Origin: an uncultured Planctomycetales bacterium
GTDB lineage: Bacteria > Omnitrophota > Gorgyraeia > Zapsychrales > Aceulaceae
Assembly: GCA_964486675.1 (NCBI GenBank)
Contig: CAZAOD010000001.1
Coordinates: 5,683 to 69,682 of the forward strand
Reading direction: 5' to 3'
Length of the DNA stretch: 64,000 bases
The first letter of the stretch is position 1, and each line of letters begins with the position of its first letter. A model generated the notes under the pieces. That model was not told the DNA's origin, did no database searches, and worked only from the letters and a program-made list of their open reading frames with translations. Shown in pieces: positions 23,669 to 60,262 of the stretch. The translations under genes and the position numbers were made by a program.

Positions 23669-24019
23669 ATGAAGAAGATCATCGAGAATAAAAATTTATT
23701 GATATTAGCGGCTATTAGCATTGGCTGTTTAGTAATATCGCTTGTTTCTTCTCAAAAATTTCAGCGGACGCGAGAGGATCTTAATCAAGAGCGGTATAGT
23801 CGCATGGTCGCTGAAGAGATGATGGAGAAAATGAAGTCAAAGGTCCGTATCCTTGAGGCCGACGTCAAGAAATTCCAGGCGGAGGCTGAAAAGGCGAATG
23901 CCTTATTGCAGCGCAAGGAAGGCGCTGTAGCGGAACTTAAGCTCGAACTTGAAAAGACCGAGCGTCTCAATCAAGTTCTCCAAGAGCAGTTGAAAAGCGC
24001 GCTTGTTCAGCAGAAATGA
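23669..24019 (+). CDS. small membrane-anchored coiled-coil protein (hypothetical)
   Basis: N-terminal TM helix (LLILAAISIGCLVISLV) then an Ala/Glu/Lys/Leu-rich coiled coil; the gene is followed by a strong intrinsic terminator. Confidence 0.4.
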   Translation: MKKIIENKNLLILAAISIGCLVISLVSSQKFQRTREDLNQERYSRMVAEEMMEKMKSKVRILEADVKKFQAEAEKANALLQRKEGAVAELKLELEKTERLNQVLQEQLKSALVQQK

Positions 24020-24085
24020 TGTACACCATGAATATGACAGAATAGCGCTATTAGCTTGTTGAGTAAGGATGGGTGGCATCGCGAT

Positions 24086-24112
24086 GGGGGATATATATCC
24101 CCCATTTTAATT
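24086..24112 (+). terminator. rho-independent terminator (perfect 18-nt palindrome plus U-tract)
   Basis: GGGGGATATATATCCCCC (24086-24103) followed by ATTTTAATT. Confidence 0.6.
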
Positions 24113-50675: not shown

Positions 50676-51265
50676 GGATCACCGGAAGTTTTGGTTCAGG
50701 GAAAACCACTGTCGCACGTATGTTGCGCGAGAGGGGAGCGAAGGTTTTTGACGCCGACAAAGCTGTTCACGCGCTTTTTCTGCCCAAGCATCCATGTTTT
50801 AAGAAGATAGCGTCTTCTTTTGGCCGAGAGATCCTGACGCGTGGCCGCATTGATCGCCGCAAGCTTGCGAAGATCGTTTTCAGAAACCCGCAAGCCTTAA
50901 GAAAGCTTTGCCGTATCACGCATCCATTGATCATCCAGCAGATAAAAAAGGAGGTTGGCCGGCACCGCGGTATGCGAACGCCGGGCTTATTTGTTCTTGA
51001 TGTCCCTTTATTGTTTGAAGCAAGATTGGAAGGATTGTGCGATTGCGTTGTTGTTGTCCGATCGACCATTCGCGCGCAGATCACGCGTTTACAAAAAAGG
51101 AACCATTTTTCTCAATCAGAAATCCTGCGACGTATTAACGCGCAAATGCCTATAGCCCTTAAGGCTGCTAAGGCGGATTTCGTTATTCATAACCAAGGAA
51201 GCATTCAGAAAACAAAAAAACAAGTAGAGGAATTATGCCGAAAACTAAAGAAAAAGAAATTGTAA
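50663..51265 (+). CDS. coaE: dephospho-CoA kinase
   Basis: [14 protein letters not shown]-loop; 200 aa. Confidence 0.85.
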
Positions 51266-52572
51266 ATGGTGGTGCAAATGGAAAGACTGATCAGGTCCCA
51301 ATGACGAATGCTGATAAGCTTTTTATTGACAGCTTAAAAGATAAAAAGATGTCGGATCTAACGCAGATCGCCAAAGACATGAAGATCGAAGGCTTAAGTG
51401 GCATCAAGAAGCAGGATTTGATCTTAAAGATCCTTCAGGCCCAAGCTGAAAAAGAAGGCGTTATGTTCGGCGCTGGTACGCTGGAGGTCTTATCCGAAGG
51501 ATTTGGTTTCTTGCGAAACGCCAATTATAATTATCTGCCATGCCCGGATGATATTTATGTCTCTCCATCCCAGATCAGAAAGTTTGATCTTAAGACGGGC
51601 GATAATGTCAGCGGGCAGATCCGGCCTCCTAAAGAAGGTGAGAAATATTTCGCGCTTCTTAAAGTAGAAGCGGTCAATTTTGAGAATCCCGAGAAATGCA
51701 AAGAAAAGATCCTGTTCGATCAGCTCACACCGCTTTATCCTCAGGAGCGTTTTCTTTTGGAAACAAGCCCCGAAGAACTATCCACGCGCGTCATGGACCT
51801 TCTGTCGCCGCTTGGAAAAGGGCAGCGCGCGTTGATCGTCGCGCCGCCGTATAGCGGAAAAACAGTTCTTTTGCAGAAGATCGCTAATTCCATCACGCGT
51901 AATCACCCCGATGCGATCCTGATCGTTCTTTTGATCGATGAACGCCCAGAAGAGGTCACGGATATGCAGCGTAGCGTCAAAGGGGAGGTTATTTCTTCAA
52001 CATTTGATGAGCCGGCAGAGCGCCATGTCCAGGTCGCTGAGATCGTTTTGGAAAAGGCCAAGCGGCTTGTAGAGCATAAAAGGGACGTCGTGATCCTTCT
52101 AGACAGCATCACGCGTTTAGCCCGGGCCTACAACACGGTCGTTCCGCATAGCGGCAAGATTCTTTCTGGAGGCGTGGACTCTAACGCGCTTCATAAACCC
52201 AAGAGGTTTTTTGGCGCTGCTCGCTGTATTGAAGAGGGCGGCAGTTTAACGATCATCGCGACAGGGCTGGTGGACACCGGAAGTCGCATGGATGAGGTTA
52301 TCTTTGAGGAATTCAAAGGAACCGGCAATATGGAATTACAGCTTGACAGAACGCTTTTTCAGAGGAGAATATATCCCGCGATTGACATCAAAAGGTCAAA
52401 TACACGCCATGAAGAGCTATTGATCCCCGAGGGTGATCTGCAGCGCATTTGGCTTTTACGCAAGGCGCTCAATGATCTTAATCTATCGGAGTCAATGGAA
52501 CTTTTGTTGGCGAAACTTGCGAAATATAAGACCAACAAAGATTTCTTAAACAACATGAACAGAGCTGACTAA
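51235..52572 (+). CDS. rho: transcription termination factor Rho
   Basis: N-terminal OB/RNA-binding domain, Walker A PPYSGKT, Q- and R-loops. Confidence 0.9.
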
Positions 52573-52596
52573 GCCTATCAAGGAGGACAATGACGT

Positions 52597-52803
52597 ATGA
52601 AAAAAGATATTCACCCTAAATATGAAGAAGCCACGATCACATGTTCTTGCGGGGAGATTATTCAGACGCGCTCGACCCGCAAAGGCATCCATGTGGAAAT
52701 TTGCTCTAAGTGCCATCCATTCTTCACGGGCGATAAAAAGTTTGTCGATACCGCCGGCCGCATTGATCGTTTTAAAAAGCGTTACGCCAAGAAAGATAAA
52801 TAA
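52597..52803 (+). CDS. rpmE: 50S ribosomal protein L31
   Basis: [11 protein letters not shown] zinc-ribbon pattern, 68 aa, AAGGAGG ribosome-binding site. Confidence 0.9.
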
Positions 52804-52805
52804 CA

Positions 52806-52895
52806 GCTCGGCGCAAAATGCGCTGAGTTGTTCCGAGCCAATAGGCAAAGGACAAAGAAATTGCTCAGCGTGAAATGCGTTGAGATACTCCGAGC
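52806..52895 (+). repeat. tandem direct repeat of two 33-nt hairpin-forming units (REP-like) in the rpmE-prfA spacer
   Basis: Unit 1 (52806-52838) is GCTCGGCGCAAAATGCGCTGAGTTGTTCCGAGC and unit 2 (52863-52895) is GCTCAGCGTGAAATGCGTTGAGATACTCCGAGC, 26/33 identical. Each has an outer GCTCGG/CCGAGC stem and an inner CTCRGCG/CGYTGAG stem. Confidence 0.55.
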
Positions 52896-52919
52896 GTTTG
52901 CGCGAGGAGATGACAGACG

Positions 52920-53984
52920 ATGAATATTGATAAACTTCAGAAGGCCCAAGAGCGTTGTGGTGAGCTAGAGGTCCTTTTGGCGGATCCGCAAGTGATCGCT
53001 GATAATAAGCGATATCAATCTTTTGCCAAAGAGATGGCAGAATTGATGCCGTTTGCCAGCGCTTACCGCGAGCATCAAAATCTTCTTAAAGAAAAACAGG
53101 ATCTTGAGCATCTTTTGAAGGAAAAGCATGATAAGGATTTTATCGATCTTGCGCATTTCGAACTCTCTGAGCTGCAAGCCCGCCAAGAAGCTCTTGAGCT
53201 TCAGATCAATGAACTGCTAAATCCCAAACGACAAGAGCAAGAAAAAGATATCATCATCGAGATCCGTGCCGGTACTGGCGGAGCCGAAGCCTCTTTGTTT
53301 GCTGGCGATCTGTACCGAATGTATACTAAGTACGCAGCTCAGAAGAATTGGCGCGTTGATCTTATGAGCAGTCATCCGGCAGAGGGTGGAGGATTTAAAG
53401 AGATCGTTTTTGGGATTAGCGGAAAAGGTACCTGGGAGCGTTTAAAGTGGGAAAGCGGAGCGCATCGCGTTCAACGCGTTCCAACAACAGAAGCTTCGGG
53501 GCGCATTCATACATCTGCGGCGACTGTCGTTGTCATGGCAGAGCCGGAAGAAATAGATCTTGTGATCGACCCTAAGGATCTAAAAATCGATGTTTTTCGT
53601 TCGTCCGGCCCTGGAGGACAGAGCGTTAATACGACTGACTCAGCGATACGCGTCACGCACTTGCCGACGGGAACCGTTGTCGTTTGCCAAGATGAACGCT
53701 CACAGCTTAAAAATAGGTTAAAGGCCATGCGTGTTTTACGCGCGCGAATCTTAGATAAGATGCAAGAAGACAGTCGCGCAAAGGAATCCCAAGAGCGCAA
53801 GGCGAAAGTAGGGACAGGGGATCGTAGTGAAAAGATCCGTACTTATAATTTTCCAGATCGCCGCGTTACGGACCACCGTATTGGGTTTACAAGTCATCAG
53901 CTTCCCAGCATCTTAGATGGTGAAATGGATGAGCTTACAAGCGCTCTGATCGAAGCTGAGCTTAGGGCGGAGGTGCAAGAATGA
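52920..53984 (+). CDS. prfA: peptide chain release factor 1
   Basis: PAT-like tripeptide region and GGQ motif (SGPGGQSVN). Confidence 0.9.
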   Translation: MNIDKLQKAQERCGELEVLLADPQVIADNKRYQSFAKEMAELMPFASAYREHQNLLKEKQDLEHLLKEKHDKDFIDLAHFELSELQARQEALELQINELLNPKRQEQEKDIIIEIRAGTGGAEASLFAGDLYRMYTKYAAQKNWRVDLMSSHPAEGGGFKEIVFGISGKGTWERLKWESGAHRVQRVPTTEASGRIHTSAATVVVMAEPEEIDLVIDPKDLKIDVFRSSGPGGQSVNTTDSAIRVTHLPTGTVVVCQDERSQLKNRLKAMRVLRARILDKMQEDSRAKESQERKAKVGTGDRSEKIRTYNFPDRRVTDHRIGFTSHQLPSILDGEMDELTSALIEAELRAEVQE

Positions 53985-60067: not shown

Positions 60068-60262
60068 TTGAGCCGATAAAGGCAAACCCGGGGAAACCCG
60101 GGGGCGCAAAACCACAGACCTAAGTTGTCTGAAGCAGCTTGCGCCCCGCACCCGGAGTGGTGCAGGGGCTACCTCAAGGGCCGGTTGGGCCGCAGTGGAT
60201 GACAAGACGGTGGCTGGGTTGCCGAAGTGGACATACTTTGTCGGCTCTTTCTTTTTTCCTTC
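60068..60262 (+). ncRNA. candidate c-di-GMP-I (GEMM) riboswitch with a terminator-type expression platform
   Basis: The core GGCAAACC-CGGG-GAAA-CCCG-GGGGCGCAAAACC at 60081-60113 closely matches the V. cholerae Vc2 core GGCAAACC-AUUC-GAAA-GAGU-GGGACGCAAAGCC. The next hairpin is CAGAC-CUAAGUU-GUCUG and carries a CCUAAG tetraloop-receptor motif. The 3' junction GGGGCUACC (60165-60173) resembles Vc2 GGGGUUACC. A P1-like pairing forms between 60068-60074 and 60167-60177. GGGUUGCC (60216-60223) can pair with GGCAAACCC (60081-60089) and overlaps the terminator stem. Confidence 0.6.
60221..60257 (+). terminator. intrinsic terminator of the riboswitch expression platform
   Basis: Stem GCCGA (60221-60225) / TCGGC (60241-60245), a 15-nt loop, then the U-tract TCTTTCTTTTTT (60246-60257). 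Confidence 0.5.

Follow-up and report, generated by a model that had tools for sequence, protein, structure and literature searches.

A candidate tandem RNA module between rpmE and prfA in a small group of uncultivated Omnitrophota

The spacer between the genes rpmE and prfA of an uncultivated Omnitrophota bacterium carries two tandem copies of a structured RNA module. Judged from comparison with related loci, this module is clade-restricted, under selection, and tandemly duplicated; it is absent from Rfam and is not dispersed. The whole stretch of DNA that was analysed, 64 kb in length, is called the window here, and loci of relatives carry L numbers. About an even chance is given to the reading that it is a cis-acting intercistronic RNA module of a rho-rpmE-prfA-prmC-murA co-transcript, which would insulate or stabilise rpmE and damp the translation of prfA. 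The module would work most like the known mRNA structures that follow stop codons and occlude Shine-Dalgarno (SD) sequences, and a minority chance is left for a specific regulator of RF1 synthesis.

Genes around the spacer

On the + strand of the window the gene order is glgA, coaE, rho (51235-52572), rpmE (52597..52803), a 116-nt spacer, prfA (52920..53984), prmC, and murA. In the list of open reading frames rpmE encodes ribosomal protein bL31, a Zn-ribbon type of 68 aa (the identical locus L001 matches Pfam PF01197), and its stop codon TAA lies at 52801-52803. prfA encodes peptide chain release factor 1 (RF1; 354 aa; Pfam PCRF/RF-1), whose closest homologues are Omnitrophota MAG proteins, with 93% identity in MAG JAKQPK01. 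The genes prmC and murA come next, likewise on the + strand, and either overlap or leave gaps of 3 nt (Pfam PrmC_N, and EPSP_synthase for murA on the related locus L002), and the rho-rpmE spacer measures 24 nt. Nearly all genes from 449 to 59824 are on the + strand, about 58 in a row as counted crudely from ORFs, and they overlap or stand a few bases apart. The rpmE-prfA spacer is therefore among the few real intergenic stretches. In outgroup loci this spacer is only 5-15 nt long, and therefore rpmE and prfA appear to have been ancestrally one unit.

A consensus scan lists no promoter-like and no terminator-like site in the spacer. The best internal promoter candidate found by eye, TTGCTC-17 nt-GATACT, matches at only 7 of 12 positions, falls under the scan threshold, and is not kept in L002; it was rejected.

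The repeat pair

Two direct repeats of 33 nt, with 26/33 identical positions and a 57-nt period, had been reported in the initial annotation, and the same coordinates were recovered here. They form one family with two copies, 52806-52838 (GCTCGGCGCAAAATGCGCTGAGTTGTTCCGAGC) and 52863-52895 (GCTCAGCGTGAAATGCGTTGAGATACTCCGAGC), which are 79% (26/33) identical and stand 57 nt apart from start to start. The 116-nt spacer was shuffled 2000 times with its dinucleotides preserved. Non-overlapping 33-mers then matched at 21/33 positions at best, and 26/33 was found in none of the shuffles; the repeat pair is not a product of chance. The 33-nt repeats thus exist, but they are not the whole unit. The repeat covers the full 57-nt period (34/57 identical), and the 33-nt unit takes in hairpin A and only the 5' arm of hairpin B. 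The true repeat unit is the 57-nt period, consisting of hairpin A, hairpin B, and a tail.

Folding of the whole spacer, which had been proposed as a check, gives four hairpins with a minimum free energy (MFE) of -49.4 kcal/mol (z = -5.2), far better than the shuffles. No U tract follows either repeat hairpin in the spacer (CCGAGCC comes after hairpin A of copy 1 and AUACUCC after that of copy 2). The earlier view that these hairpins are not classical terminators is borne out by the inspected tails and by the scan, and the repeats do lie where a prfA leader would be on an rpmE-prfA co-transcript.

Hairpin anatomy of the two modules

Module copy 1 (m1; 52804..52862, + strand) is built from the hairpins A1 and B1 followed by an A-rich tail, and it is matched by the covariance model R1 with 72.7 bits (E 1e-17). 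Hairpin A1 (52802..52832, +) has a stem of 13-14 bp with covariation-supported pairs and a loop AAA, and its predicted energy is -21.2 kcal/mol. It begins within the rpmE stop codon TAA, and it is both the longest perfect stem-loop and the strongest one on either strand of the 64-kb window. The 40 nt that follow the rpmE stop fold with -21.7 kcal/mol against a median of -4.4, which ranks first among 58 genes. Hairpin B1 (52832..52852, +), of the form UCC-GA-GCC-AAUA-GGC-AAA-GGA, belongs to the MFE structure with -5.5 kcal/mol.

Module copy 2 (m2; 52864..52919, +) is made of hairpin A2, hairpin B2, and a 10-nt spacer to the prfA AUG, and R1 matches it with 56.3 bits (E 3e-13). Hairpin A2 (52864..52884, +) folds with a stem of 8-9 bp and -10.5 kcal/mol. 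All four differences between the A1 and A2 stems keep the pairing (G-U to A-U, C-G to U-G, A-U to G-U, and G-C to G-U). Hairpin B2 (52888..52909, +) folds as CUCC-GA-GCG-UUUG-CGC-GA-GGAG with -9.8 kcal/mol.

Hairpin B has the general form YCC-RA-GSS-loop-SSC-RA-GGR, in which a purine-purine (RA/RA) internal loop interrupts the stem. B1 shares this architecture with B2, but in place of GGAG it has the decayed form AGGA, and no start codon adjoins it. The GCC/GGC stem of B1 and the GCG/CGC stem of B2 differ by a compensatory change. B1 has the stretch CCAATAGGC[A/G]AGG in common with L002 and L017, and the CCGAGCG...CGCGAGG core of B2 is also present in L005 and L034.

The 3' arm of B2 contains the Shine-Dalgarno sequence GGAG (52906-52909), which pairs with CUCC at 52888-52891. 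It stands 10 nt 5' of the prfA AUG, and the SD-to-AUG spacing of rpmE is identical. On account of this shared spacing, GGAG at 52906-52909 is likely the working prfA SD, and B2 would therefore occlude it. In a constrained fold with the 12 nt after the stop codon masked, B2 remains closed.

A mini-ORF of six codons (52910-52930, +; ATG ACA GAC GAT GAA TAT TGA) lies directly 3' of GGAG and runs out of frame over the prfA start. The sequence GAGGAGATGACAGACGATGAA at this place is the same in the window, L002, L005, and L006. Since there is no spacing from the SD, the mini-ORF is probably not translated.

The module in relatives

A protein scan of genome contigs for relatives yielded 11 loci. Among all relatives examined, the loci with RF1 93% identical to that of the window (L002, L004, L006, and L029) have the same 116-nt spacer with two modules that carry substitutions. 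At 81% RF1 identity, L005 and L026 have a 59-nt spacer with one module, which is exactly 57 nt shorter. Among loci with 75-76% RF1 identity the arrangement varies. L031-33 (75%) have two intact modules in a 127-nt spacer, and L034 (75%) has two partly decayed modules in 110 nt. One module and an extra GC-rich hairpin are present in L030 (76%), and a partial module after rpmE together with a full extra copy between rho and rpmE is found in L017 and L018 (76%). In L019, L020, and L015 (75%) there are only remnants in spacers of 58-70 nt. No module is present in the spacers of 5-15 nt of L024, L035, and L038, which are outgroups on the RF1 tree (72-73%), nor in the short spacers of the more distant L008, L010, and L014 (57-58%). 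The hairpin that follows rpmE begins 0-1 nt from the stop codon in L005, L030, and L031 as well.

The extra module of the L017/L018 lineage lies in the rho-rpmE spacer (L017 258-314 and L018 1052-1108; 35 bits, E 7e-9), so that rpmE is flanked by modules on both sides, and the rho stop codon UAG falls within hairpin A of this extra copy. In L031, and likewise in the L017 copy upstream of rpmE, 21-31 nt separate hairpin B from the start codon, and therefore it cannot be a working SD there. The relatives that lost the module (L019, L020, and L015) have weak, unstructured SDs. Since they let the module decay, the module is dispensable.

In L030, a 10-bp GC-rich hairpin (GCGCCGCCCC...GGGGCGGCGC) at 260-302 is followed by CCAUUUGUUU and ends 0-1 nt before the prfA AUG. 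This hairpin is terminator-like, prfA has no obvious SD there, and the region has AUCUUGCGCC and a U-rich tail in common with L017. In L034, the gene caller of the source placed a 72-aa ORF without Pfam match at 1332-1550, over the end of rpmE, the spacer, and the prfA start; this ORF is probably an artefact of the structured spacer. Two distant Omnitrophota, L007 and L009, have rpmE-prfA spacers of 140 and 122 nt with unrelated, very long and strong hairpins (z -8.9 and -7.1). Overall, the length of the rpmE-prfA spacer looks bimodal, and strong structure seems to recur at this junction.

Conservation of the structure and its strand

Hairpins A and B were examined in an alignment of ten module copies from relatives. 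The structure is paired in 90.3% of the alignment cells, and when the partners are slid by 1-3 columns the value drops to 29-43%. The covariation score of 0.324 compares with a shuffle mean of 0.224 and was reached by none of 500 shuffles. Double-sided changes occur in six pairs, among them 5-25 (C-G to G-C in L030), 9-21 (G-C to A-U in L031), and 37-42 (C-G to G-C between B1 and B2). RNAalifold, without being prompted, returned the same two hairpins on the ten-copy alignment.

The initial annotation had described each repeat as a nested hairpin. Both repeats do form hairpins, but the outer nested pairing has no support in relatives. The pairing GCUCGG...CCGAGC is present in unit 1, and its share of paired cells over the alignment, 70%, equals what shuffles give on average (70.3%). 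Where L031 has changed its 5' arm, the inner 3' arm carries the matching change and CCGAG shows none. The nested pairing was therefore rejected as an antiterminator-like alternative.

Wobble pairs are asymmetric, with 20 G.U cells against 6 A.C cells, and pairing amounts to 90.3% when read on the + strand versus 82.7% on the - strand. This bias points to an RNA read from the + strand rather than to a DNA site or an antisense RNA. Fourteen columns are invariant in the ten copies, including A14 in the A-loop and A34 in the internal loop. The stem pairs 6-24 and 10-20, A16 in the A-loop, and A46 in the internal loop are nearly unvarying. Conservation of the sequence thus goes beyond the need of a generic hairpin, which hints at a specific partner. 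Among the possibilities that had been listed for the repeats, a processing or attenuation structure, that is a cis element at the RNA level, is the best fit to the conservation, the covariation, and the + strand wobble bias.

Search for further copies and known families

Degenerate pattern searches of the window with up to 3 mismatches recovered only the two copies. With the filters off, R1 found in the 64-kb window only 52804-52862 and 52864-52919, and the next best match had 10.9 bits. Over 33 related loci (about 138 kb), significant R1 matches occur only at the flanks of rpmE. A pattern scan of 241 M metagenome records returned four stretches, two of which are the same locus in relatives; the other two are chance matches within a coding region of a high-GC organism that is unrelated. 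With a looser pattern, 56 matches came up on viral contigs, approximately the chance expectation, and none of them passes R1 (best 16 bits). In Rfam release 15, nothing in the spacer reaches the gathering score, and nothing appears at E <= 10 in 52560-52960.

The search for more copies that had been called for earlier thus produced none beyond the rpmE flanks in the window, the related loci, the metagenome records, or the viral contigs. Therefore, over the 64-kb window and the related loci, the element is locus-specific and a REP/BIME identity is rejected, and the module would be a local gene-expression device and not a member of a genome-wide repeat family. The suggestion of REP/BIME-like elements does not hold up, since there are no dispersed copies and the two copies are direct and not alternating. 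A DNA-level site for a regulator is disfavoured as well, since substitutions keep RNA pairing through G.U and degrade the DNA symmetry.

Selection and history of the duplication

At four-fold degenerate sites of rpmE and prfA, the window is only 25-31% identical to L031 and 32% to L034, which means saturation. In the same comparison, m1 of the window is 82% identical to m1 of L031 and 73% to m1 of L034, and it is 63% identical to m2 of the window. m2 of the window is 88% identical to m2 of L002 and 82% to the single module of L005. Since m1 of the window resembles its counterparts in other subclades more than the m2 beside it, the duplication predates the split of the subclades. Since the identity of m1 is high despite saturated four-fold sites, both copies have been under purifying selection in the lineage of the window.

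The single module of L005 is m1-like at 16 of the first 17 columns and then m2-like at 30/33 and 10/10 positions. This chimera of m1 and m2, together with a spacer that is exactly 57 nt shorter, points to a 57-nt deletion by recombination between the copies. m2 of L031 is 86% identical to its own m1 and 69% to m2 of the window, which indicates conversion or re-duplication.

A recent lineage-specific duplication from a single unit such as that of L005 is ruled out by the pairs in L031 and L034, the grouping of m1 over subclades, and the L005 chimera. The module pair arose when the entire spacer was duplicated in tandem at this place long ago, and in other lineages it has collapsed to one copy by recombination between the repeats, become homogenised, or decayed. 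The conservation check that had been suggested with the initial annotation turned out in favour of the element: the module is clearly kept in relatives. A chance local duplication is therefore rejected, even though no copies were found elsewhere. Thus, selection has evidently maintained the tandem module within a single small group of uncultivated Omnitrophota.

Proposed role of the module

Co-transcription, an insulating or stabilising role of hairpin A, and translational damping by hairpin B are what we infer for this module. The proposed role can be potentially described as follows. Two tandem modules of about 57 nt would be read from the + strand within a rho-rpmE-prfA-prmC-murA co-transcript. 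A1 would act as a ribosome termination structure (RTS) after the stop codon, by which ribosomes that finish the abundant L31 cistron are kept out of prfA, and it may also shield the upstream mRNA from 3' exonucleases as a 3' barrier. B2 would hold a strong SD (GAGGAG) partly closed, so that the low-abundance RF1 is translated far less than L31. The relatives without the module have weak, unstructured SDs, which fits the idea that a strong SD with a hairpin is equivalent to a weak SD. Therefore, the module may serve as a set-point rather than as a switch.

RTS are stable structures directly after stop codons, stronger after genes of abundant proteins, which were proposed to insulate downstream translation; by definition, the 40-nt window directly after the stop folds at -6 kcal/mol or below and more stably than its surroundings, and in the published survey they are depleted after mid-operon genes (Chemla et al. 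2020, PMC7518266). A1 resembles an RTS in that it is a stable stem-loop (-21 kcal/mol) at the very stop codon of a gene whose protein is abundant, within a spacer of more than 25 nt. The value of -21.7 kcal/mol after the rpmE stop exceeds both the -6 kcal/mol limit and the surroundings. However, RTS are generic and independent of sequence, whereas here the sequence is conserved, a second hairpin is coupled, and the unit is tandemly duplicated; the module also lies mid-operon, where published RTS are depleted. Hairpin A of copy 2 adjoins no stop codon, and hence the RTS idea covers copy 1 only.

Hairpins that sequester an SD are known from translational operators and RNA-thermometer-like stems. 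The likeness of B2 to these lies in the pairing of CUCC, which is anti-SD-like, with GGAG 10 nt from the start, in a stem that is supported on the alignment and has a non-canonical internal loop. The difference is that no alternative fold that opens the SD in dependence on a signal is predicted by masking in the window, L002, L005, or L006, and that some B copies lie off start codons. These copies that are no SD (B1, L031, and L017 upstream of rpmE) are misfits with the simple reading.

Two switch-like mechanisms were considered and rejected. In a ribosome relay, a ribosome on the rpmE stop would open the prfA SD; when the region is masked, the 3' arm of A1 re-pairs with the 5' arm of A2 and hairpin B stays closed. 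Sensing that is specific for RF1 through the rpmE stop is contradicted by the stop codons, which are UAA in the window, L002, L005, L019, L024, and L015; UAG is confined to L017 and L020.

If the set-point reading is right, the spacer would be a natural case of a compact, almost promoter-less genome that uses a hairpin after the stop codon and an occluded SD to set the output of a scarce translation factor apart from that of a very abundant ribosomal protein encoded on the same transcript. The spacer would also document the evolution of such a module by tandem duplication, repeat-mediated collapse, conversion, and decay, and it adds a candidate structured RNA motif that is absent from Rfam. 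To our knowledge, nothing has been established on gene regulation in the Omnitrophota, which are an uncultivated phylum.

Alternative explanations

It is unlikely, though worth weighing, that the spacer is a leaky transcription terminator or attenuator, a U-less cluster of hairpins at which most rho-rpmE transcripts would end and a minority would read into prfA-prmC-murA. Clusters of hairpins within 80 nt of stop codons have been described as termination units in which U trails are not required (Gupta & Pal 2021, PMC8355165). The spacer resembles these with four consecutive hairpins within 110 nt of the stop codon, several of them adjacent within about 80-110 nt of it and with no U tract; furthermore, the homologous hairpin of L017 has the top GCGCA-UCU-UGCGC followed by UUUUUGUUU, and the extra GC-rich hairpin of L030 is followed by CCAUUUGUUU. 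A1 is a G+C-rich hairpin (14 bp, -21.2 kcal/mol) as in canonical intrinsic terminators, but no U tract comes after any spacer hairpin. U-tract terminators do exist in this genome, as indicated by a canonical, UUUU-tailed hairpin at 24083-24106 (+; GAUGGGGGAUAUAUAUCCCCCAUU followed by UUAAUU), downstream of a gene that ends at 24019. The essential genes downstream have no promoter-like site, and in outgroups the co-directional genes are fused or only 5-15 nt apart. Termination would also leave the pairing of the SD by B unexplained; the last hairpin of the module holds the SD of the next gene. A different kind of rival, which we consider quite improbable, is that hairpin A, the internal loop of hairpin B, or both are a sequence-specific operator for a trans-acting factor, such as free bL31 or another translation protein, and that tandem copies give cooperative feedback on prfA translation or on rpmE mRNA stability. 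Conservation beyond the need of pairing speaks for it (14 invariant columns, and 82% identity of m1 over a saturated split), as does the linkage of every copy to rpmE, including the copy in leader position in L017/L018. In E. coli, bL31 binds a purine-bulged stem-loop in the rpmE 5'UTR and represses rpmE (Aseev et al. 2020, PMC7297116); the module is like this operator in being an rpmE-associated stem-loop with conserved unpaired purines near an SD. It differs in that it lies 3' of rpmE and not in the leader in the window and most relatives, with an upstream copy only in L017/L018, and in that it belongs to another phylum and has no sequence or Rfam relation to known ribosomal protein leaders. 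The decay of the module in close relatives is a further point against an operator. More broadly, the conserved sequence, the stop-distant A2, the non-SD copies of B, and the linkage of all module copies found to rpmE, even in leader position in L017, leave room for a trans-acting partner. On this basis, a small chance is given to the idea that the module is a clade-specific cis-regulatory RNA for a sequence-specific partner (free bL31, RF1, or the terminating ribosome at the rpmE stop), which would couple RF1 synthesis to the status of ribosomes or termination, with cooperativity from the tandem copies. The gene prfB is autoregulated by a frameshift, and we know of no specific regulatory mechanism for the synthesis of RF1. 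If true, this coupling would give prfA its first proposed feedback device, a counterpart to that of prfB.

Pairing between the modules (the 3' arm of A1 with the 5' arm of A2, and the 5' arm of A1 with the 3' arm of A2) could produce a long irregular duplex that is an RNase III-type site and separates the rpmE and prfA mRNAs, which we regard as very improbable. The long-range fold is the predicted MFE structure in L002, L006, and L034, and masking of the 5' arm brings it out in the window too; L034 keeps only the helix of A1-3' with A2-5' intact. Nevertheless, the MFE structure of the window itself consists of the local hairpins, which would form first during transcription, the long-range option is automatic once a palindrome is duplicated, and the single-module loci L005 and L030 cannot form the duplex. 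Least credible of all, and close to dismissed, are REP/BIME-like mobile palindromes or DNA sites for a dimeric transcription factor. REP/BIME elements are extragenic palindromes, and intercistronic stem-loops of the malE-malF type stabilise the upstream mRNA. The repeats are similar to them as imperfect palindromes of about 20-40 nt, extragenic and just past a stop codon within an operon, where a barrier to 3' exonucleases that leads to differential expression is plausible, and a further copy occupies the adjacent rho-rpmE spacer of one relative. On the other hand, the module is confined to one locus, with two copies in 64 kb by R1 and matches only at the rpmE flanks over 138 kb of relatives. 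From the metagenome scan came this locus again, in two relatives, and two chance matches in coding sequence, and the 56 viral matches fail the model. The copies are direct instead of alternating, and the G.U-preserving substitutions spoil the symmetry of the DNA while keeping the pairing of the RNA.

Genomic surroundings

The GC skew is positive throughout the region 449-59824 (0.05-0.18), and from about 60 kb onward the genes are on the - strand. At the end of the + strand series, Rfam identifies a c-di-GMP-I-GGC riboswitch aptamer (RF03167) at 60072-60227 (+) with 61.5 bits, against a gathering score of 59 (E 4e-12).
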